NCBI GenBank assembly: GCA_039931205.1
Contig: JBDTSJ010000095.1
Span: 104 to 64,103 of the forward strand
DNA: 64,000 bases
Direction of reading: 5' to 3'
Source of the DNA: Acidobacteriota bacterium
Lineage (GTDB): Bacteria > Acidobacteriota > Terriglobia > Bryobacterales > Bryobacteraceae
Position numbers and translations under genes: made by a program. Shown here one piece after another: positions 4,884-14,595 of the stretch. The notes under the pieces were generated by a model, which worked only from the letters and a program-made list of their open reading frames with translations, had not been told where the DNA came from and made no database searches. The first letter of the stretch is position 1, and every line of letters starts with the position of its first letter.

Positions 4884-6092
4884 CTAAAGGACTCTCTCGA
4901 ACCTATATCCCGCATCGCGAAGACTATGCATTAGTTCCTCCGCGTGCTCCGCGCCGCGAGTCTCCATGGTGATGTCGATCTTTGCTTCACCCAGATGAAC
5001 GCCGAAATAGGTCCGGTCATGGATCACCTGCAAAATGTTCGCGCGGCCTCGTGAGATCACACCGGTAAGGCGCTCCAGGCCCCCTGGATGATCGGCCAGA
5101 GTCACGCGCAGGCGGACCGAACGGCCATCTTTCACCAAGCCGCGCTCGATGATATGGGCCAATAGCGTCACATCGATGTTGCCGCCGGTGATCACCGCGG
5201 CTACCCTTTTCCCACGCAGCGAAGTCCGCTTCTGCAATAGGGCCGCGACTCCGATCGCTCCGGCGCCTTCCGCCAAAGTCTTCTGTTTCTCCAACAGCCG
5301 CAGGATGGCCATCGCAATTTCTTCGTCGTCGACGGTGACCATTTCGTCGACGTACTTCTCGGCCAATTCCAAAGTTAGATCGCCCACGCGCCGCACCGCA
5401 ACGCCGTCGGCGATGGTGGGGGCGGCCGGAACGTCCACCGGCTGGTGAGCGGCCAATGCCGCCTTCATTGACGGGAGGGCCGCCGGCTCCACGCCGACGA
5501 TTCGCACCTCCGGACGCGTCTCCTTGATCGCGCAACTCAGCCCGCCAATCAGTCCGCCCCCACCCACCGGAACCACGACCGCTTCCAGGTCTGGAATCTG
5601 ATCCAGCAACTCCAGCCCCACGGTTCCCTGCCCCGCAATCACCGCTGGATCGTCGAATGCATGCAGAAAGGTGGCCCCGCCGGTAATCGCCCGGCGGCGA
5701 GCCTCGGCTAACGCCTCGTCGAAATTCTCACCATGCAGCACCACTTCCGCGCCCCAGCCCCGCGTGGCCGTCACCTTCACCAAGGGAGTATAGAGCGGCA
5801 TGCAAATGGTCGCGTGAATTCCCAAGCGGCCCGCATGATAGGCGACCCCCTGGGCGTGATTCCCAGCGGACGCCGCGATCACGCCATTGGCGCGCTGTTG
5901 CTCCGTCATGCACAACATTCCGTTCAGCGCCCCACGCTCCTTGTAGGATCCCGTCACATGCAGGTTCTCAAGCTTCAACAGAACCGCATTGTCCGTTTCG
6001 CGCGAGAGATTCTCCGAATAGGCCGCCGGAGAGATGCGAATGCTGTCGCGAATGCGGGCGCGCGCGGCTTGCACATCGGCAAGGGTTACCAT
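4884..6092 (-). CDS. ilvA: threonine ammonia-lyase (threonine dehydratase) with C-terminal ACT-like domain
   Basis: PLP-lysine motif TGSYKERGA and a GGGGL glycine loop. Start set at MVTLADVQAARARI (ATG 6092). The upstream 39 codons of the track ORF look non-coding. Confidence 0.85.
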   Translation of the reverse strand: MVTLADVQAARARIRDSIRISPAAYSENLSRETDNAVLLKLENLHVTGSYKERGALNGMLCMTEQQRANGVIAASAGNHAQGVAYHAGRLGIHATICMPLYTPLVKVTATRGWGAEVVLHGENFDEALAEARRRAITGGATFLHAFDDPAVIAGQGTVGLELLDQIPDLEAVVVPVGGGGLIGGLSCAIKETRPEVRIVGVEPAALPSMKAALAAHQPVDVPAAPTIADGVAVRRVGDLTLELAEKYVDEMVTVDDEEIAMAILRLLEKQKTLAEGAGAIGVAALLQKRTSLRGKRVAAVITGGNIDVTLLAHIIERGLVKDGRSVRLRVTLADHPGGLERLTGVISRGRANILQVIHDRTYFGVHLGEAKIDITMETRGAEHAEELMHSLRDAGYRFERVL

Positions 6093-6771
6093 GAATTTCA
6101 GTATGGCTGGTTTACCTAAAAATGGTTTACCCAAAAGTGGTTCGCCTCCAACTCGTCTGGAGCAGGCTGGTGTCGCAGGCTTCCTGCATTCGCCGGCAGG
6201 CGGGCCCATCGCGGCGCTGGCGATTACGCACGGCGCTGGGTCAAATTGCCAGACTCCGCTGTTGTTGGCTCTGGCCGAAGCCTTTGCGGATGCCGGTTAT
6301 ACCGTCTTGAGATATGACCTACCGTTTCGCCAAGCTCGGCCCCATGGCCCACCCCTTGGCTCGCAGGCGAAAGACCGTGACGGCATCCGGCGGGCTGCGG
6401 ACGCCCTGCGGTCCGTGGCGCCAAACGTGCCGCTGTACTTGTCGGGGCACTCTTATGGTGGCCGCCAGACCAGTATGTTGGCAGCGGAAGATGCGTCCGC
6501 CGCCGATGCAATCCTGCTGCTCTCCTATCCCTTGCATCCTCCCAAACAGCCGGATAAATTGCGTACCCAGCACTTTCCGCAATTGCAAGTGCCGGCGCTT
6601 TTCGTGCATGGCACTCGCGATGAATTCGGGACAATCTCCGAAATGGAATCGGCACGCTTGCTCATCCCCGCCCGCACCGCCATTCAGCCAGTGCAAGGCG
6701 CGCCGCACGGGCTGGCGGCGAAGCTCGCGCCCCAGGTTCGCGAGTGGTTTGTTACCTTCACAAGTAAGTGA
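6091..6771 (+). CDS. alpha/beta hydrolase (COG3571 / KANL3-Tex30-like)
   Basis: ..ITHGAGSNCQTPLL..YDLPF..SGHSYGGR..HGTRDEFG..PHGL. The start could be ATG 6091 or ATG 6103. Confidence 0.7.
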   Translation: MNFSMAGLPKNGLPKSGSPPTRLEQAGVAGFLHSPAGGPIAALAITHGAGSNCQTPLLLALAEAFADAGYTVLRYDLPFRQARPHGPPLGSQAKDRDGIRRAADALRSVAPNVPLYLSGHSYGGRQTSMLAAEDASAADAILLLSYPLHPPKQPDKLRTQHFPQLQVPALFVHGTRDEFGTISEMESARLLIPARTAIQPVQGAPHGLAAKLAPQVREWFVTFTSK

Positions 6772-7439
6772 GTCTCCGCGATCGTATTGACCAAGTAGAA
6801 GAGCGCATCACCAACGCCGCTCAGCGTTCGGGACGCCGGCGCGATGAAATCGTCCTGGTGGCCGTGACCAAAAAGTTTTCGGCCGACGTGGTGCGGGAAG
6901 CCTACGGGTGCGGCTTGCGCGTGTTCGGCGAAAACTACGTCCAGGAATTCGCCGAAAAACATTCCGCGCTCAAAGACCTCGCAGATGCCGAGTTTCACCT
7001 TATCGGGCACCTCCAGTCGAACAAGACCAAACTGGCAGGCGATCTGTTCGGAACCATTGAGACAGTAGATTCAGCCAAGCTCGCGCGCCGTCTGAATGAA
7101 AGCGCACGTCCTCTCGACGTCATGATCGAGGTGAAGTTATCCGAGGAAGAATCCAAGGCCGGAGCGGCACCGGATGAGTTGCCTGCACTTATCGAGGCAA
7201 TTCAGAGTTGCCAACATCTTCGGCTTACCGGCTTGATGACCATGCCACCGTGGAGCGACGACCCATCTCAGACGCGGCCCTATTTTCGTAAACTGGCCGC
7301 GTTGGCGCGCCAGCACGGGCTGCTCAAGCTCTCGATGGGTATGTCCCACGATCTGGAAGCGGCCATAGAGGAGGGCGCAACGCACGTACGCGTTGGCACC
7401 GCGCTCTTCGGACCGCGGCCCAAGCCCACCCTTCCATGA
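6768..7439 (+). CDS. yggS: YggS-family pyridoxal-phosphate homeostasis protein
   Basis: 223 aa with ..LVAVTKKF..FGENYVQE..HLIGHLQSNK..SMGMSHDLE..VRVGTALFG. GTG start overlaps the upstream stop. Confidence 0.85.
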   Translation: MSLRDRIDQVEERITNAAQRSGRRRDEIVLVAVTKKFSADVVREAYGCGLRVFGENYVQEFAEKHSALKDLADAEFHLIGHLQSNKTKLAGDLFGTIETVDSAKLARRLNESARPLDVMIEVKLSEEESKAGAAPDELPALIEAIQSCQHLRLTGLMTMPPWSDDPSQTRPYFRKLAALARQHGLLKLSMGMSHDLEAAIEEGATHVRVGTALFGPRPKPTLP

Positions 7440-8527
7440 GGATCGGCTACTTTTCGCCGATGCCGCCGGCAGCCACCGGCGTCGCGGATTACAGCGCGGC
7501 GCTGCTGCCCTACCTGCGCCCATTCGGCGAGGTCTTCATCAACACGCCAAGCGATGTGAATCTCTATCATGTCGGCAACAATCGTCTGCACCGCGAGATC
7601 TACGAACGCGCACTCGCCGAACCCGGAGTAGTGGTCCTGCATGACGCCGTGCTGCAACATTTCTTTCTCGGCTCCCTGGATCAGCGTGCGTACATCGAAG
7701 AATTTGTCTACAACTATGGCGAATGGACCCGCGAGCTAGGCCGGGAGCTATGGCGTGAGCGGGCCCGCTCCGGTGCGGACGCGCGCTACTTCTCTTATCC
7801 GATGCTGAAGCGGGTGGCGTCTACCGCACGGGCCATTATCGTCCACAATCCCGCAGCCGCGGCCATGGTCAGACAGCACGTCCCGGACGCGAGGATCACA
7901 GAAATCCCGCATTTGTTTGTGCCCCCAATTCTGCCTGATGCAGTGGACACGCTGCGTTTCCGCCAAACGCTCGGCGTCGCGCCCAGGACGCTGTTGGTAG
8001 GAACCTTCGGACACCAGCGCGAGACCAAGCGCCTGGCGGTGCTGCTGCGCGCGTTCGAAGCCGCCCTGGCACGCGGCGCCGACGCGCGATTATTGGTATC
8101 CGGCGAATTCGTGTCGCAGACATTCTCGCGCACCATGGAGCCGCTTCTCGAACGCCCCTATATTCTTTGCACCAGATATCTTCCCGAACCAGACTTCTGG
8201 AAATACGCGGCCGCCACCGACCTATGCGTAAACTTGCGCTACCCCTCCGCCGCGGAATCCTCCGGAGTCGCGATCCGCTTCATGGGCATCGGCAAAGCTG
8301 TCGCCTTCAGCAGCGATCCAGCAATCGCGCGGTTCCCCGATAACGCTTGCCTGCGAATCGATACGGGAGCTACCGAGCAGGAGATGCTGACCGGCTACAT
8401 CTGCTTACTCGCTCAGCATCGCGAAGCTGCCGCCTCCATCGGCCGCCACGCCGCCGCACACATCGCGAGGGAGCACGATCCAGAAAAGGTGGCCGCCGCC
8501 TACTGGGACGTTCTCAGTAAAGCGTAG
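7436..8527 (+). CDS. glycosyltransferase (GT-B, GT4-like)
   Basis: 363 aa. N-terminus MRIGYFSPMPPAATGVADYS.. is typical of GT4 enzymes. 4-nt overlap with yggS. Confidence 0.65.
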   Translation: MRIGYFSPMPPAATGVADYSAALLPYLRPFGEVFINTPSDVNLYHVGNNRLHREIYERALAEPGVVVLHDAVLQHFFLGSLDQRAYIEEFVYNYGEWTRELGRELWRERARSGADARYFSYPMLKRVASTARAIIVHNPAAAAMVRQHVPDARITEIPHLFVPPILPDAVDTLRFRQTLGVAPRTLLVGTFGHQRETKRLAVLLRAFEAALARGADARLLVSGEFVSQTFSRTMEPLLERPYILCTRYLPEPDFWKYAAATDLCVNLRYPSAAESSGVAIRFMGIGKAVAFSSDPAIARFPDNACLRIDTGATEQEMLTGYICLLAQHREAAASIGRHAAAHIAREHDPEKVAAAYWDVLSKA

Positions 8528-10079
8528 GCGGTTTGGTCTCCGTGCCGATCCAAAAATCCTTGGGAGGATTTTCCCACGCCGGCTCACTGAGCAGCCGGGG
8601 TTTCAACACAATCAGGACCTCGCCACTGTCGTTGCTCTTGGTCTCACGCCGGAACAGATGACCCAGGCCGGGAATCTCCGACAAACCAGCCACTCCGTTG
8701 ATCGTGTGACTGATGCGGGACACGGCCAGCCCCGCAATAATCGCGTATTCGTCGGATTTCACGCGCACGGTACCGGAAAACTTGCGGCTGGAAATGACGG
8801 GAATGCCGTTATTCGAACTGCCTCCCAACAAGCTGTACTCGGACTCGATGACCAACGTCATCTCGCCGTCCGCATGCACCGTGGGGGTGATTTGCAGCCT
8901 CAACCCAAGGTCCTGAAACTGAGTGACCGGCGTGTTGCTGTTCGGAATCGTGGGATCGCCGAACGTCCCGGTAACCACCGGATAGCGGTCGCCAATGTGG
9001 AGCTGAGCCTGTTGACCGTCCAGCGATACCATCTGTGCGCGCAGGGAGGAGCGCGCGGAACTGGTACTCAAAGTGGCAAACGCTTGCGCCCCCGTGATAC
9101 CCAGGCCAATGGTCGAGGTGGACAACCCGAGCCTGGCAAAGGTCATGGGGTTTGTCAGGGTGCTAAAGGAAAAAACGTTCTGCAGGTTGAAACCATAGCT
9201 CAACGTAGAATTGTTGGCGACGGAGAGCAGTTCCACTTCCACCATCACCTGCGCCCGATAACGCGCCAGGTCTGTGATAATCCTGCGCGCGGCCGTCACC
9301 TTATATTCCTGGTCGCGCAGAAAAATGACCCGCCGCCCCGCGTCTACCGCGATATGCCGCAGTTCCATGATCTGCTGAACGCCACTGGCCAGTTCCTGCG
9401 CCTCTTGTACGCTCATTCTCTGGGGAATCGGGATGGCCATGGCAATCACGGGAGTATTTGCGGTGCGCTTGTCGGGCGTATCGCGAAACACCAGCGCCGT
9501 ATTCTCGCGCGCCGCCACCAGGAAGGTGTTGCTGGCCGATTCCATGGAACGAAATGCGTCGGACATGCTGGCATCTCGCATGCGAAACGTGATGACTTCC
9601 GGCGCCTGGAAATCCGGCTCAAAGACCAGCTGAATGCCGTAAGCTCGCGCGACTTCTTCCCAGACGGGCCGTATGCTTCCTCGAATGTCGAAGGTTTTGC
9701 GCTCCGAGGAAGGCTTCAGTTTGGCCGGCAGCAGCGTATCCCGGCTCTCAATCACGTCGGTCGCCGAGAGTTGCTCGGCGGTCATCCTCTGCACCATGCG
9801 AGCTGCCGGATCCAAGGCGGGGTCCGGGCCGGCCACCACATCGGCGGATTGCTGCAAGCGGGTTTGAAGAAGTCTGCTCTGGGCAGCGCCTTGGAACGAA
9901 AAAGCGCTATTCCTGGCCGTGTTCGCGGCGGCGCGCCCGTAAAGGAAGAAAGCGTTTAAAGTGTCTCCCGCCGCCTCCGCCCGCTGCGCCGACTCGTACA
10001 AGAATTTTGGGGTTTCTTCCTGTCCCCGGCAAATGGCCGCCAAGCCCAACAGAACAAACGCTATAGAAAAACACTTCAC
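8514..10079 (-). CDS. secretin (type II/III secretion system family outer-membrane channel)
   Basis: 521 aa with a signal peptide (MKCFSIAFVLLGLAAICRGQ). The C-terminal secretin domain ends ..INGVAGLSEIPGLGHLFRRETKSNDSGEVLIVLKPRLL. No other T2SS or T4P genes are nearby. Confidence 0.8.
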   Translation of the reverse strand: MKCFSIAFVLLGLAAICRGQEETPKFLYESAQRAEAAGDTLNAFFLYGRAAANTARNSAFSFQGAAQSRLLQTRLQQSADVVAGPDPALDPAARMVQRMTAEQLSATDVIESRDTLLPAKLKPSSERKTFDIRGSIRPVWEEVARAYGIQLVFEPDFQAPEVITFRMRDASMSDAFRSMESASNTFLVAARENTALVFRDTPDKRTANTPVIAMAIPIPQRMSVQEAQELASGVQQIMELRHIAVDAGRRVIFLRDQEYKVTAARRIITDLARYRAQVMVEVELLSVANNSTLSYGFNLQNVFSFSTLTNPMTFARLGLSTSTIGLGITGAQAFATLSTSSARSSLRAQMVSLDGQQAQLHIGDRYPVVTGTFGDPTIPNSNTPVTQFQDLGLRLQITPTVHADGEMTLVIESEYSLLGGSSNNGIPVISSRKFSGTVRVKSDEYAIIAGLAVSRISHTINGVAGLSEIPGLGHLFRRETKSNDSGEVLIVLKPRLLSEPAWENPPKDFWIGTETKPPTLY

Positions 10080-10118: not shown

Positions 10119-10126
10119 AAACTCAA
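10119..10126. repeat. target-site duplication, left copy (AAACTCAA)
   Basis: Identical 8-mer directly abutting the outer end of each terminal inverted repeat. The other copy is at 13293-13300. Confidence 0.85.
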
Positions 10127-10151
10127 AGTGATTATGCACTTGACACACATG
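10127..10151. repeat. IS left terminal inverted repeat
   Basis: See the mobile element entry. 23/25 match to the reverse complement of 13268-13292. Confidence 0.85.
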
Positions 10152-10167
10152 GCCCTTTAGATCCATA

Positions 10168-11202
10168 ATGGAGGGCATGAGGAATACCCCTTCCCTGATA
10201 GACGTAGCCAAGCAGTTTGGCACCCCTGAAGCGTGTATCCAATACCTCGTAATGATGCGGTGGCCTGAAGGCGTGCAATGCGTTTCCTGCCAGAGCAAGA
10301 AGGTCTCAAAGCTGTTTGTATCTAAGGGTAGGCAGCGTACGAACAAGAAGGGGGAGGCCGTGCGGTCGCCTGATCGCTACCTCTATACCTGCTTGGAATG
10401 TAAGCACCAGTTCTCCCCCACTGCGGGCACAATCTTTAACGATACCCATTTGCCTCTGACGGATTGGTTCATGGCCGTGGCGCTCATGTGTAACGCAAAG
10501 AAGGGCCTCTCCGCGAAGCAACTAGAGCGCGATCTGCACATCAGCTACCGCACGGCGTGGTATCTTGCCCATCGCATCCGAAAAGCGATGGAGGACGGCG
10601 CTCCCGGTCTGCTAACAGGTACCGTTGAAGCTGACGAAACTTTCATTGGTGGCGAATACGACAGGCGTCGCAAGCGCTCCAAGTATGGCAAGCAGGCCGT
10701 ATTCGGCGCATTGCAGCGCGCGCAGGACGGCAAGCCTTCCCAAGTGCGCGCATTCCCTATCAAGAAAGCTGCGGGCAAGTTCCTGACGGGCGCTGTGGCT
10801 GGAACCGTTTCTACTACAGAAGCGACGCTATTCATCACGGATGAACACTACGGTTACCGCAAGATCGGGAAGCAGATGCAGCATGAAACGGTAAAGCACA
10901 TAGCGTTGGAGTACGTTCGCAAGGGCGATCCCCGAAACATCACGATCAACGGCATCGAGTCGTTCTGGTCACTGTTCAAGCGTGGTGTGATAGGTTCCTA
11001 TCACAAGGTGAGCGTAAAACACCTTCGCCGGTACCTCGACGAATTTACCTTCAGATTCAACAATCGCGAAGCAGAAGACCTATTCATGCTGGTCTTCCTG
11101 AACCTCGTGATAGCTCAGGGCATCAAGTACTCAGAATTGATTTCTTCCGAGGAACCAAACGCCGTCGAACCTTTGGAGCCGCCTGACTTTTCTTGGGAGT
11201 AG
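10168..11202 (+). CDS. IS1595-family transposase (N-terminal zinc ribbon plus ISXO2-like DDE domain)
   Basis: 344 aa with ..ACIQYLVMMRWPEGVQCVSCQS.., ..ISYRTAWYLAHRIRKAM.., ..VEADETFIGG.., ..NGIESFWSLFKRGVIGSYHKVSVKHLRRYLDEFTFRFNNRE. Confidence 0.85.
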   Translation: MEGMRNTPSLIDVAKQFGTPEACIQYLVMMRWPEGVQCVSCQSKKVSKLFVSKGRQRTNKKGEAVRSPDRYLYTCLECKHQFSPTAGTIFNDTHLPLTDWFMAVALMCNAKKGLSAKQLERDLHISYRTAWYLAHRIRKAMEDGAPGLLTGTVEADETFIGGEYDRRRKRSKYGKQAVFGALQRAQDGKPSQVRAFPIKKAAGKFLTGAVAGTVSTTEATLFITDEHYGYRKIGKQMQHETVKHIALEYVRKGDPRNITINGIESFWSLFKRGVIGSYHKVSVKHLRRYLDEFTFRFNNREAEDLFMLVFLNLVIAQGIKYSELISSEEPNAVEPLEPPDFSWE

Positions 11203-11428
11203 GCATTATGCCGTCCTTCGCGCTGGCTGGCGTGGCGATGAGTTTGCCTAGGAGAGCGTCGAATTGATTCTTATCTGCCTTCATTGACCATCCGGTCTAA
11301 GCCTAACAAAGAACATACCCATTTCGGCATTCGGAAACGCCCACCCTGAAATTCTAAATCACCATACCCTATTTTCTCTACGGCTATGCTATTATCCCCT
11401 TAGGGCAGGATCTGCTTTGAGGTGAGAA

Positions 11429-11899
11429 ATGAAAATCGACTTAGCTAAGGTAGAATCGCAAATCAGAAAACTGGAGGAACTTCGGAGGATTGCATCGGAC
11501 CCCGAATTGTTGTCTCTCTTAGAGACCGTGATGGTCAACGGGGCATCGTCCCCGATTCAATCTCCCCCACTGATCCAGCCACCAGTAAAACACGTAGAGG
11601 CTACGGCTTCTATTCGCCCTTTCGTTTTTGGAAACTCCAGAAAAGGAAAAAAGGGCGTGTTTCAGTCCGCTGTTAGAGACGCCATTTCGCGTATCGAAAT
11701 CGACAAACCATTTACTGGGTACGTGGTTGCGCGTAGAATGCTGAGCGAGGGCTACAAGTTTGCGGCCAGTAAGCCGGGGATCGCCGTTATCGACGCACTA
11801 AAGGCAATGATCAAAAAAGGGGAAGTTCGAGTTTTCAGGAAAGGTGGCGGCAGCGAAGCTACGCTGTTTATTCGCGTTGCCGCCAAGGAAAACCAATGA
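11429..11899 (+). CDS. hypothetical protein, IS passenger 1 (coiled-coil N-terminus, Pro-rich linker, possible winged-helix C-terminus)
   Basis: 156-aa ORF with a GAGGTGAGAA Shine-Dalgarno motif before the ATG and a clean codon pattern. No family recognised. Confidence 0.55.
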   Translation: MKIDLAKVESQIRKLEELRRIASDPELLSLLETVMVNGASSPIQSPPLIQPPVKHVEATASIRPFVFGNSRKGKKGVFQSAVRDAISRIEIDKPFTGYVVARRMLSEGYKFAASKPGIAVIDALKAMIKKGEVRVFRKGGGSEATLFIRVAAKENQ

Positions 11900-11951
11900 T
11901 AACTATCTAGTTTCTGTCATCCCGCTAACCGATAACAGGAACCAAAACGAG

Positions 11952-11997
11952 AAGGACCGATCCGCCGACTTTTGCAGGGCTGACGGAATCGGTCCTT
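11952..11997 (+). other. strong hairpin between the two passenger genes
   Basis: AAGGACCGAT-CCG ... CGG-A-ATCGGTCCTT forms 13 bp with one bulge. It lies 53 nt after the stop of the 156-aa ORF. No U-tract follows. Confidence 0.4.
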
Positions 11998-12156
11998 GGT
12001 TGGCAAGCACCTTTATGGAGAGCTGCCAGAATTGGTAAATGGACTCGCCTTATAAGCGAAAGTCATGCTACTGATACCAGCATGTGAGGGTCCGAGCCCC
12101 TCGCTCTCCGCTTCACCCATATTATACATACATTTAGTGGATTCGCGCGAGCATAA

Positions 12157-12951
12157 GTGCCACATAGCTTCGATATCTGCATTGACGAATCGGGGGATCA
12201 GGGCTTTTCCTTCCATAAGCCTGATTGTTCGCATTGGTTCGTGCTATCAGGCGTAATTAGCCTACGTGCTCGCACTGAGGAGATGACCAGCCTCATTAGA
12301 AGTGCTAAGCAATCACTAAACTGGCAGGAGAAGCAGCATCTGCATTTTAAGGACGTGAAAATCGACCGGCGCGAAGAGCTAATTCAAACCCTTATTCAGG
12401 ACGCGTCTCTATTCCGGGCAATCGTCGTAATGGTGCATAAACCTTCACTACACAGCCCAGAGAAGTTCAAGGAGGAGAACCGGCTCTATTTTTACTTCAC
12501 AAGATTTCTGTTGGAGAGAGCTTCGAGGTTGTGCCGGGATCACCCGCAACGCCACGACAAAAATATGGGCGACGGTTCTGCGCGCGTTATCTTCTCAAAG
12601 ATGAATGAAATATCGCATAAAAGAATTCAGCGATATTTTGGGGATCTACGTGGTATTCAAACCTCAATCGACTGGGACGTAATTAAGGACACTCAGTTTG
12701 AAACACTTTCCCCAACCAAGCATGCGGGCTTGCAAATTGCTGACTCCGTGGCTGGAGGTTTCTTTTGCGGAGACCATCCGGTCCAGAAGAAACAGAGTCC
12801 ACGTTGGTGTCAGATGTTTAAGCCGATGCTCTATACTGGCAGAGACGGGGAACATCGCGGATACGGACTCAAGATATTCCCAAAGGAAGCTGAAACGCGC
12901 ATCGCCCAAGGGACGATGTCCGCTTGGGCGATGACGCACTATCCAGTGTAG
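12157..12951 (+). CDS. DUF3800-family protein, IS passenger 2
   Basis: 264 aa with a GTG start. It has the N-terminal ..ICIDESGDQG.. motif and the C-terminal ..HAGLQIADSVAG.. motif, the two signature motifs of DUF3800 as I remember them. Confidence 0.7.
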   Translation: MPHSFDICIDESGDQGFSFHKPDCSHWFVLSGVISLRARTEEMTSLIRSAKQSLNWQEKQHLHFKDVKIDRREELIQTLIQDASLFRAIVVMVHKPSLHSPEKFKEENRLYFYFTRFLLERASRLCRDHPQRHDKNMGDGSARVIFSKMNEISHKRIQRYFGDLRGIQTSIDWDVIKDTQFETLSPTKHAGLQIADSVAGGFFCGDHPVQKKQSPRWCQMFKPMLYTGRDGEHRGYGLKIFPKEAETRIAQGTMSAWAMTHYPV

Positions 12952-13060
12952 GCCTAGGCTCCAGGAGCCCACCGTTTTACCGGCTGCCGCCCATAAGGAC
13001 GACCTGGAGTGGTTCCCACGAATCCTACACTTTGAGTATCGGGTCCGCTCTTAATCTGGT

Positions 13061-13124
13061 CAAGATATCATTGGATTTACCTATGGCTATAACCAAGTTA
13101 TAATCCAATATCTTGTTTTGTTTG
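13061..13124 (+). terminator. candidate intrinsic terminator after the passenger genes
   Basis: CAAGATAT(CA)TTGGATT ... AATCCAATATCTTG forms a long imperfect hairpin with an inner TATAAC-caa-GTTATA stem. It is followed by TTTTGTTTG. Confidence 0.4.
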
Positions 13125-13267
13125 TGTAACATGCCAAATTACGATATCTCCGTGCATGTCCACGTCCCCCCATACCATATTCACTATCCTTTGGGTAGTG
13201 AGTTCACTTACCTATTCCTTTTCTTACGGCAATGAATTCTAGCGCCAGCCTGTCCATCTAAGCCTAT

Positions 13268-13292
13268 CATGTGTGTCAAAGGCATAATCACT
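13268..13292. repeat. IS right terminal inverted repeat
   Basis: CATGTGTGTCAAAGGCATAATCACT. Confidence 0.85.
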
Positions 13293-13300
13293 AAACTCAA
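13293..13300. repeat. target-site duplication, right copy (AAACTCAA)
   Basis: Identical to 10119-10126. Confidence 0.85.
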
Positions 13301-13338: not shown

Positions 13339-14595
13339 ATGGCTACTTTCGCACCCGTCCGCTCCAATTATCGTCCCAGCATCCCGCAGGATTTGAAGTC
13401 CCTGGGGGTGCCCGATACGCTGGTGCTCGACTTGATCCTCCGCCGCATGTTGATCGAGGGGTACTCCAGCCTGGCCGGATTGAGCCGCTCCTTGCGCATT
13501 GCCATCCCGGTAGTCGACGCCGTGTTCAAGCATATGCGCGCCCAACAGCTTGTGGAAATCAAGGGCATGGTGGGCAATGACTACAACTTCATTCTTTCCG
13601 CCGCCGGAAAGCAACTGGCATCGGAACGCTTTCAAGTCTCCCAATACGCGGGCGCCTGCCCAGTTTCGCTCACCGAATATCACGCCGCGAGCAAGGCCCA
13701 GGCAGCCAAGGTAATGGTCGACCGCCGGATTCTGCGCCAGGCATTCTCCGACCTGGTCGTCAGCGACCGCATGCTGGATCAATTAGGCCCCGCTATCATC
13801 TCTCAGACGTCCATCTTCGTCTACGGACCCACCGGCAACGGCAAAACCAGTCTGGCGGAACGGATGTTGCGCGTCTATCAGGACGCCATCATGATCCCTC
13901 ACGCTGTCGAAGTCGACAACCAGATCATCAGTGTCTTCGATCCAGTGGTCCACCAGCCCATCGAAAATGACGAAGAAGACGTGGACAAGCGTTGGATCCT
14001 GTGCCGCCGGCCCTGCATCGTCGTAGGCGGTGAGCTCATCCCCAGCATGCTGGAACTGCGTTTGGATGAGACCTCCGGTATTTACGCCGCTCCGTTTCAG
14101 ATGAAGGCGAATAACGGCATTCTGTTGATCGACGACTTCGGCCGTCAGTTGATGAGTCCGCGCGACCTTCTCAACCGTTGGATCGTGCCCCTGGATCGCC
14201 GTGTGGACTACCTGACTCTCCGTTACGGCGTGAAATTCCAAATCCCGTTTGAGCTCATGGTCGTCTTCTCCACCAACCTGGAGCCCGCCGACCTGGCCGA
14301 TGAAGCCTTCCTACGCCGTATCCACAACAAGATTTACGTCGAGGCCGTGGACGCCCCCGCGTTCGACCAGATCTTCGCCCGCGTGGTCCAATCGCGCAAC
14401 CTGCAAGTGGAATCGGATAGCGCGGAGTATCTGCGGAAACTGTGTCTGCGCGAAGGCCGCACGGAACTGCGCGCCTGTTACCCCGCCGATATCTGCAATA
14501 TTTTGACGTCTATCGGACGTTACGAAGGGCGTCCGCCGTTGATGACGAAGCCCGAGATGGAACGCGCCACGGCGCTGTACTTCGCGAAGAGCTAA
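13339..14595 (+). CDS. AAA+ ATPase of an uncharacterised family (N-terminal winged-helix-like region)
   Basis: 418 aa with Walker A VYGPTGNGKTS and Walker B ILLIDDFGRQ. It also has a MoxR/ChlI-like block, NRWIVPLDRRVDYLTL..FELMVVFSTNLEP..EAFLRRI. Confidence 0.75.
   Translation: MATFAPVRSNYRPSIPQDLKSLGVPDTLVLDLILRRMLIEGYSSLAGLSRSLRIAIPVVDAVFKHMRAQQLVEIKGMVGNDYNFILSAAGKQLASERFQVSQYAGACPVSLTEYHAASKAQAAKVMVDRRILRQAFSDLVVSDRMLDQLGPAIISQTSIFVYGPTGNGKTSLAERMLRVYQDAIMIPHAVEVDNQIISVFDPVVHQPIENDEEDVDKRWILCRRPCIVVGGELIPSMLELRLDETSGIYAAPFQMKANNGILLIDDFGRQLMSPRDLLNRWIVPLDRRVDYLTLRYGVKFQIPFELMVVFSTNLEPADLADEAFLRRIHNKIYVEAVDAPAFDQIFARVVQSRNLQVESDSAEYLRKLCLREGRTELRACYPADICNILTSIGRYEGRPPLMTKPEMERATALYFAKS

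Follow-up and report, generated by a model that had tools for sequence, protein, structure and literature searches.

Why would an insertion sequence (IS) carry a tRNA gene of its own, and which codons might that tRNA read? The question is raised by a 3,166-bp element of the IS1595 family at 10127-13292 in the 64,000-nucleotide stretch of an Acidobacteriota genome analysed here (contig JBDTSJ010000095.1; the whole stretch is called the window). Between its ends lie a transposase gene, a small gene on the opposite strand, a class-II tRNA gene with anticodon UAU, two further protein-coding genes and a second RNA gene. In the clade of elements to which it belongs, the transposase, the small basic protein and the tRNA recur together, and both protein genes hold ATA codons locked at fixed positions. 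The element's tRNA would, on balance, probably read these AUA codons, either as a switch or by recoding them.

Boundaries and family of the element

The element is complete and present in one copy within the 64-kb window. Its terminal inverted repeats (TIRs) are 25 nt long, the left one (IRL) at 10127-10151 on the forward strand (AGTGATTATGCACTTGACACACATG) and the right one (IRR) at 13268-13292 on the reverse strand (reverse complement AGTGATTATGCCTTTGACACACATG). They are identical at 23 of 25 positions and form the top-ranking inverted repeat of the region. A perfect 8-bp target-site duplication, AAACTCAA, flanks them at 10119-10126 and 13293-13300. An earlier annotation of this DNA from its letters alone (the sequence-only reading) had claimed 25-bp terminal repeats matching at 23 positions, a perfect 8-bp direct repeat and a length of 3,166 bp; direct reading and an inverted-repeat search bore out all three, and the positions and counts claimed with them hold as well. 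A degenerate pattern of the repeats (at most three mismatches) matched twice in 64 kb, at IRL and IRR, and in none of 100 shuffles. The G+C content is 50.4% within the element and 59.4% in its flanks.

The transposase is encoded by a single uninterrupted open reading frame (ORF) without frameshift at 10168-11202 (+), giving 344 aa from the ATG at 10168. The probable true start is the ATG at 10177, where relatives begin (341 aa, MRNTPSLIDV). This 341-aa form is on record in the database, and exact look-ups found no record identical to the 344-aa form or to the flanking ATPase. The protein contains the DDE domain PF12762 (E=1.1e-32, 113.6 bits, cutoff 27), matches the NCBIfam model NF033547 (184.5 bits, cutoff 75, 2.3e-54) and carries the IS1595 zinc ribbon PF12760 at residues 20-81 (30.4 bits, cutoff 25.4, 3.8e-07), and its residues D156, D225 and E264 show no variation among the five closest relatives. 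The IS1595 family is defined by the DDE_Tnp_IS1595 domain, a zinc ribbon that is absent only from the IS1016 group, an 8-bp duplication and one transposase ORF (PMC8101967). The window element has the DDE domain, the zinc ribbon, the 8-bp duplication, terminal inverted repeats and a single transposase ORF, and we regard it with near certainty as a complete IS1595-family insertion sequence; the three domain models agree with the IS1595-type transposase named in the sequence-only reading. Its closest kin are presumably the ISNwi1-type elements with passenger genes ('ISNwi1+' in ISfinder), a putative placement with which its (A/G)GTGATTAT ends would agree, being similar to the ..ATTAT-type consensus of that subgroup.

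A promoter-like site at 10140-10169 (+; TTGACA-18 nt-CATAAT), with 11 of 12 consensus matches and its -35 hexamer inside IRL, is the probable transposase promoter as judged from this consensus match. The DDE transposase, through its zinc ribbon and DDE domain, presumably binds the 25-bp terminal repeats, and IRL would then also supply the -35 box of the gene's likely promoter.

Transposase scans yielded 159 loci from genomes and metagenomes, and related loci number about 170 overall. Over all loci, complete elements were called by script as a pair of 18-mer inverted repeats with an 8-bp duplication, and tRNAs were called by ARAGORN. The five closest elements (the window element and L001-L004, 53-71% identity) have ends GGTGATTATRCACTTGACA around transposase and cargo, each with its own, different perfect 8-bp duplication. 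The same GGTGATTATRCACTTGACA ends enclose transposase and cargo in relatives with 43-75% identical transposases; the end sequence of the window element reads (A/G)GTGATTAT, and the inverted-repeat core GTGATTAT-N-CACTTGACA is kept at both ends of related elements. Across the clade, 27 distinct perfect 8-bp duplications were found, and since their G+C content averages 0.33, insertion appears to prefer AT-rich targets. A complete sibling of about 3.2 kb, L174 (ends GGTGATTATGTACTTGAC, duplication GAAAAAAC, transposase 55% identical), has the same gene order, and relatives of both passenger ORFs of the window lie inside its ends and duplication.

The insertion site is the 85-bp spacer between a divergent secretin gene (PF00263; 8514-10079, -) and an AAA-ATPase gene (13339-14595, +), and the 8 bp duplicated there are an AT-rich target. 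In genomes with an 88-90% identical flanking ATPase, the two genes lie directly side by side in divergent orientation, separated by 81-153 bp that contain no IS. The window without the element and without one repeat copy aligns collinearly with the spacers of these relatives (window GCGTGCAGTAAACTCAAGTG-CTTTTTCCGCCGATA, L161 GCGTGCAGTAAACCCCGGGA-GTTTTTCTGCCGATA), which hold one copy of the octamer. The empty site that the sequence-only reading expected in related genomes was thus found without the element and with a single target copy, in related species and not in the same strain. Two outcomes named there as contrary to an insertion did not appear: related genomes had not both AAACTCAA copies in place without the element, and transposase copies were not bounded so as to exclude the passengers. 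In the window, about 3.2 kb now lie between the secretin gene and the ATPase gene as a result of the insertion, which probably disturbs the promoter region that they share.

Taken together, these comparisons show a segment that, on the evidence of its relatives, moves as one unit with everything between the terminal repeats. The opposite view, that the inverted and 8-bp repeats arose by chance or that the cargo lies outside the true element, could draw on the single copy in the 64-kb window. Against it stand the shuffles, none of which matched the inverted-repeat pattern, and dozens of relatives with the same ends around transposase and cargo and perfect 8-bp duplications; these ends and duplications, the empty site in relatives and L174 effectively refute it, and we give it next to no probability. 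With all parts intact and a perfect duplication, but a single copy in the window, activity of this copy, judged probable in the sequence-only reading, is plausible. Considered by itself, the element adds a new and well-resolved member to an established IS family.

A tRNA(UAU) and a small basic protein in the clade core

A tRNA(UAU) gene was found in 33 of 34 complete clade elements, including minimal ones of 1.9-2.0 kb. Where the transposase is at least 43% identical to that of the window, a tRNA called 'Ile(tat)' is almost always present, even in elements of 1.9-2.5 kb; in relatives at 41% identity or below (1.0-1.9 kb) it is never present. L140, which had seemed to be a second exception without the tRNA, has a 106-nt tRNA(UAU) that ARAGORN overlooked, so the tally stands at 33/34 and L094 remains the real exception. 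Region 2547-2700 of L094 contains an irregular tRNA of 71 nt (loop CAGCAAG) together with a tRNA-like gene that seems to have no anticodon arm.

The second constant companion of the transposase is a small basic protein, which in the window has 53 aa (MKADKNQFDALLGKLIATPASAKDGIMPTPKK...) and is encoded at 11123-11284 (-), convergent with the transposase gene and overlapping its 3' end. A profile search detected it in all 34 complete clade elements; counted by locus, it was present at 66 of 86 inside the clade and at 1 of 74 outside. Its motif is KVDK..FDAVLxKLIxTPP, and it has no match in Pfam or NCBIfam. The sequence-only reading had listed the transposase and two passenger ORFs, an inventory that missed this minus-strand ORF and both RNA genes.

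Protein cargo is far less constant, the most frequent family reaching at most 4 of 31 complete elements. The occurrence counts show a clade core that, by this comparison, consists of the transposase, the small basic protein of about 50 aa and the class-II tRNA(UAU), with other cargo apparently interchangeable. That the tRNA is a core component of the clade is very likely.

ATA codons locked at fixed positions

Transposases of tRNA-bearing elements use ATA at 14.8 per 1000 codons, which is 27% of their Ile codons, at a third-position G+C content (GC3) of 0.70. The values are 6.0 per 1000 codons, about 16% of Ile codons and a GC3 of 0.61 for transposases of tRNA-less relatives, and 2.8 per 1000 codons and 5.6% of Ile codons for host ORFs in the window. 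A composition effect was rejected as the source of the excess, GC3 being higher and TTA, AGA and ACA lower in the tRNA-bearing transposases.

The ATA codons are concentrated at particular residues. At transposase residues 11, 275 and 315, ATA was counted 108 times among 110, and not once among 144 Ile codons in ordinary conserved Ile columns (window I89, I137, V210, I263). In an enlarged count over 76 distinct clade transposases, residue 11 (10198-10200, +) had 65 ATA, 2 ATT/ATC and 3 Arg codons; residue 275, in the context RGVIGS (10990-10992, +), had 57 ATA and 2 ATT/ATC, with M, Y, V, L and one T otherwise; and residue 315 (11110-11112, +) had 40 ATA and 0 ATT/ATC, its alternatives being mostly Gly. 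Residue 245, in the context HIALEY (10900-10902, +), displayed 29 ATA, 35 Ser codons and 0 ATT/ATC, and the column of residue 317 displayed 12 ATA and 24 Ser codons, never ATT/ATC. The small protein is locked in the same way at residue 26 (11207-11209, -), where the equivalent column holds 39 ATA and 3 ATT/ATC; over its other Ile columns, the ratio of ATA to ATT/ATC is 5:28.

The nearest tRNA-less relatives have ATG/GTC/AAC or ATT/ATC at the locked positions, and the transposase of L171, which has no tRNA, contains 0 ATA codons. Codons next to the locked ones drift synonymously, so selection acts on the codon itself and not on a DNA motif. A longer DNA motif that happens to include ATA was rejected on this ground and on the differing context of the small-protein site; in the window, TGATAG reads at all three locked transposase sites. 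The lock was also looked for in the cargo DUF3800 genes and was not found there.

Individual copies depart from the pattern. The transposase of L004 has ATT at residue 275, ATA being lost. In L094 and its near relatives L087, L099, L100 and L133, the transposase keeps ATA at the three locked residues (11, 275, 315) and shows it at position 89, an ordinary Ile column, as well.

Structure of the tRNA(UAU)

The tRNA gene of the window lies at 12017-12110 (+). It was called by ARAGORN and matches the Rfam family RF00005 over model positions 1-71 (47.3 bits, gathering score 29). The anticodon UAU stands in the loop CUUAUAA, the discriminator is G73, and the geometry is 7/5, with the acceptor stem GGAGAGC/GCUCUCC and the T stem GAGGG/CCCUC. 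More than 20 nt are inserted in the variable arm relative to the Rfam tRNA model, which makes it a class II tRNA.

The 46 distinct clade tRNA(UAU) genes have divergent bodies, encompassing 8/4 allo-type, 7/5 Ser-like and GCCGAG D-loop forms. CTTATAA forms the anticodon loop of 38 of these genes, the remaining ones deviate from it by a single base, and most have G as discriminator. When 25 of these tRNAs were aligned, changes in both partners had left pairing intact at 15 of the 18 predicted cloverleaf pairs; judged by this covariation, selection maintains the structure of the tRNA. In 36 of 45 cases the tRNA and the transposase share a strand.

A group of tRNAs with these features has been described before. 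The allo-tRNA-UAU genes of Acidobacteria have a UAU anticodon, a long variable arm, mostly G73 and toxin-antitoxin-like neighbours, and they include a pseudogene in Edaphobacter (Mukai et al. 2017, PMC5389517). In that study, an involvement of transposable elements was no more than a suspicion (PMC5389517). Judging by these traits, the clade tRNAs match the allo-tRNA-UAU group.

The constancy of the tRNA bears on a simpler explanation, in which the element is an ordinary IS with incidental passengers and the tRNA is either AUA-decoding cargo of benefit to the host or a decaying pseudogene, without a part in the biology of the element itself. IS1595 elements with passenger genes are recognised, the term being used in the literature as well, and mobile elements such as phages often carry tRNA genes. 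The Edaphobacter pseudogene also fits this explanation (PMC5389517). Yet the tRNA is kept in all complete elements save one, down to 43% transposase identity and in the minimal elements, while other cargo turns over; compensatory changes preserve its cloverleaf; and the matching locked codon is present in the core genes. We consider incidental carriage improbable.

Further observations concern the surroundings of the tRNA. Immediately 5' of it, at 11954-11995 (+), are a GC-rich hairpin (GGACCGAT...ATCGGTCC) and, after the hairpin, a GGCAAGCACC-like motif, and similar hairpins with GGCAAC/GGCACC precede the tRNA(UAU) in L004, L081, L098 and L108; the hairpin may be a 5' leader or processing element. 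The anticodon-loop hexamer UUAUAA (12048-12054) is self-complementary, and two such tRNAs could pair loop to loop. Extra tRNA-like genes stand beside the tRNA(UAU) in L124 (3052-3306), L003 (4574-4660), L142, L144 and L155; in L124, an element of 2,041 bp, genes for Thr-GGU, Gln-UUG and Ile-UAU follow one another in tandem, and others have an irregular 'Ala-UGC' gene. These arrays resemble the irregular tRNAs that Mukai et al. found in polycistrons (PMC5389517).

What the tRNA may do

The reading that we prefer, and that we hold to be rather more probable than improbable, is that the element's own tRNA(UAU) decodes the AUA codons locked in the transposase and the small protein. Production or exact sequence of both core proteins would then depend on the element's tRNA. 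This could take two forms. The first would be a rare-codon switch, as with the bldA tRNA and UUA codons in Streptomyces. The second would be true recoding, which is possible, beyond mere control of rate, because the tRNA body is of the serine type (long variable arm, G73) while the codon is one for Ile. Under standard identity rules, a class II body with G73 would suggest Ser; Ile, charged by way of the anticodon, would likewise be compatible with the invariant loop and its A37 and A38.

A stricter version of recoding is a private code. The locked AUA codons of both core proteins would be read by the serine-type tRNA(UAU) as Ser, or as some residue other than Ile, and an active or inactive isoform would arise only when the tRNA is expressed. 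We advance it tentatively, as a possibility that is more doubtful than decoding as such. If true, it would be a transposon-encoded sense-codon recoding switch, and it would explain both the abundant, so far functionless allo-tRNA-UAU of soil Acidobacteria and the toxicity seen in E. coli.

A number of observations weigh against decoding by the element's tRNA in either form. The evidence on the inserted amino acid is mixed: the hydrophobic alternatives at transposase residue 275 and small-protein residue 26 fit Ile, residues 245 and 317 alternate between ATA and Ser codons and never show ATT/ATC, and a Codetta-like likelihood test, in which control codons recovered the expected residues, tended to place A, T, V and S ahead of I and L at ATA. 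The clade sequences are phylogenetically related, and the codon counts are therefore not independent events. The host already decodes AUA, at 2.8 per 1000 codons in its ORFs, so that dependence on the element's tRNA cannot be absolute. Many copies, that of the window included, have a T loop UCCGA instead of UUCGA. Sigma-70-like matches upstream of the tRNAs were no commoner than in shuffles and gave no promoter of their own; the tRNA is probably co-transcribed with upstream genes. L094 keeps its ATA codons and carries only irregular tRNA-like genes without UAU. Six allo-tRNA-UAU species tried as amber suppressors, with altered anticodon and in the foreign host E. coli, gave 0/6 functional suppressors and two lethal ones, and the authors proposed that allo-tRNA-UAU takes no part in translation (Mukai et al., PMC5389517). 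Decoding would presuppose that the tRNA is expressed, charged and used by ribosomes.

Several of these points would suit a tRNA-like RNA that acts outside translation, in a regulatory or structural role, with an independent cause for the ATA lock. Such an RNA might mark the cargo transcript for processing by RNase P, serve as partner or decoy to a toxin or nuclease of the kind found in the cargo, or dimerise, and the lock might come from pausing at a host-rare codon that favours co-translational, cis-acting transposase binding. The absence of suppression in E. coli by the six variants (PMC5389517), the deviant T loops or extra-long variable arms of several copies and the ATA codons retained by L094 without a UAU tRNA are in keeping with this, as are the occurrence of the tRNA in either orientation, often beside toxin-antitoxin-like or DNA-binding cargo, and the self-complementary loop hexamer. 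It would, however, leave a coincidence unexplained, namely that the sole invariant of 46 divergent tRNA bodies is a loop complementary to the codon locked in both core genes. The lock is also absent from all tRNA-less relatives, and the whole cloverleaf, acceptor stem and discriminator included, is held by compensatory changes, a degree of conservation beyond what a mere processing signal or decoy would need. A role outside translation is, in our judgement, rather unlikely.

If decoding of the locked codons by the element's tRNA holds, it would represent a new kind of transposon self-control, with a rare-codon 'lock' in the transposase and a tRNA 'key' on one element. Natural recoding of a sense codon, restricted to one mobile element, is a further possibility, relevant to the evolution of the genetic code and to orthogonal translation, in which allo-tRNAs are already used.

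Interchangeable cargo: ORF2, DUF3800 and an antisense RNA

The swappable cargo of the window element comprises ORF2, the DUF3800 gene and the convergent DUF3800-VII RNA, with the tRNA sitting between the first two. The sequence-only reading had described two unrelated ORFs; the comparison with relatives corrects this, ORF2, tRNA(UAU), DUF3800 and antisense DUF3800-VII RNA forming a recurrent block. ORF2 (11429-11899, +; 156 aa) is the first gene of the block, an intact ORF for which 9 relatives were found and no family in Pfam, NCBIfam or PADLOC. Its relatives in L174 and L176 stand directly upstream of the tRNA(UAU), which is followed by DUF3800 and then by the RNA. A 167-aa ORF in the same position of L171 was considered as a further relative and showed no similarity.

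The DUF3800-domain protein (ORF3; 12157-12951, +; 264 aa; PF12686, 1.5e-12) begins with GTG 46 nt past the tRNA, and relatives at 45-65% identity are located in other IS1595 elements. The DUF3800-VII RNA (Rfam RF02967; 12941-13030, -) is antisense to it and overlaps the last 11 nt of its ORF; the match is full length (1-90), with 65.5 bits against a gathering score of 36.2 and E=1.5e-12. A convergent RNA stands at the 3' end of DUF3800 in each of the five DUF3800 relatives examined, as well as in L174 and L176, making 7 further loci. Just upstream of the RNA, a candidate promoter at 13035-13063 (-; TTGACC-17 nt-GATACT) has 9 of 12 consensus matches, consensus similarity being its only mark. 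DUF3800 proteins have a predicted RNase H-like fold (PMC10910872). PADLOC matched none of the three proteins (transposase, ORF2, DUF3800), and tblastn of ORF2 and DUF3800 against the first 159 loci gave no relatives, which surfaced only through protein searches. The central hairpin of the RNA (12985-12995) shows a UUAU loop, and UAA is frequent in DUF3800 motifs (Weinberg et al., PMC5737381).

The DUF3800 gene and its RNA also occur apart from the tRNA. L171 (1-3150) belongs to another IS1595 subgroup (transposase 32% identical, ends AAATATACTTGACTGACCAGG) and has the same module without tRNA(UAU). In L173, IR-like ends CGTGATTATCTA surround a DUF3800 gene and a DUF3800-VII RNA without transposase at 5577-7347 (1,771 bp); no clean 8-bp duplication was found there, and the segment may be a non-autonomous derivative. 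A small helix-turn-helix (HTH) protein, LuxR/sigma-70 region 4-like, is encoded near the right end of L174 (2916-3221, -), L167 (6963-7253, -) and L120 (10491-10820, -); the right part of the window element (12952-13292) has no ORF for it.

Element size varies between copies. L004 (= L080) reaches 5,087 bp through an IS3-family element (orfA/orfB) nested at 7340-8607. L140 and L142 share the same 8-bp duplication and 86-87% identical flanks at an apparently orthologous site, with sizes of 5,105 and 3,199 bp, and L114, L116 and L134 likewise share a duplication at an apparently orthologous site, with sizes of 4,059, 2,988 and 3,884 bp. Such size differences at seemingly orthologous sites suggest gain or loss of cargo in place, or an insertion hotspot.

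Comparison with known systems

With IS1595 elements that carry passengers, the window clade shares the DDE domain, the zinc ribbon, the lone transposase ORF, the TIRs, the 8-bp duplication and the added genes. It differs from them in the invariant core of tRNA and small basic protein and in the codon-locked ATA. No description of such a core or of such a lock was found in the literature for any IS family, and the combination looks like an undescribed variant of IS organisation.

The pairing of DUF3800 genes with adjacent DUF3800 RNA motifs is a known, unexplained association (Weinberg et al. 2017, PMC5737381), and the window element shares with these systems a DUF3800 gene with a neighbouring DUF3800-VII RNA (PMC5737381, RF02967). 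In contrast to the known pairs, gene and RNA are here cargo of IS1595 elements of at least two subgroups, and in every case the RNA runs convergently, with an overlap at the gene's 3' end. A long-standing unknown would thereby become mobile cargo of IS1595 elements, with many natural variants for functional work.

The allo-tRNA-UAU group and the clade tRNAs have in common an acidobacterial origin, the UAU anticodon, the long arm, mostly G73, toxin-antitoxin-like neighbours and a second irregular tRNA. L001 and L003, among others, have the 8/4 geometry and the 5-bp D stem with tetraloop of an allo-tRNA. Unlike allo-tRNAs, the tRNAs of the window, L004, L002 and L169 have the canonical 7/5 acceptor/T geometry. 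The window tRNA has the allo-tRNA traits of a long variable arm, a serine-type G73 and a non-serine anticodon, and by the strict definition it is not an allo-tRNA because it is 7/5 and lacks a 12-bp branch in 8/4 or 9/3. Beyond the work of Mukai et al., the carrier element is now defined and a matching codon signature has been found in the carrier's genes; no paper defining the carrier of allo-tRNA-UAU was found in the literature. The most abundant non-canonical tRNA group of Acidobacteria, unexplained since 2017, would thus belong to the core gene set of one defined lineage of transposons.

Phages and other mobile elements often carry tRNA genes, and here too a mobile element provides a tRNA matching codons that are over-represented in its own genes. 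What sets the clade apart from phage-type tRNAs is that its signal is no overall match in codon usage: in two genes of a transposon of 2-5 kb, the sites locked on ATA are sharply separated from Ile sites free of it.

The closest likeness in regulatory logic would be to the bldA tRNA-Leu(UAA) of Streptomyces, a dedicated tRNA that acts through TTA, a genome-rare codon kept at specific positions of few genes. Both systems have a high-GC host, a rare codon, a dedicated tRNA and a codon retained at specific positions; in the window, ATA is rare in the host (2.8 per 1000), stands at fixed positions and co-occurs with the tRNA(UAU). The two differ in that here the tRNA and its putative target genes lie together on a mobile element and a serine-type body is matched to an Ile codon.

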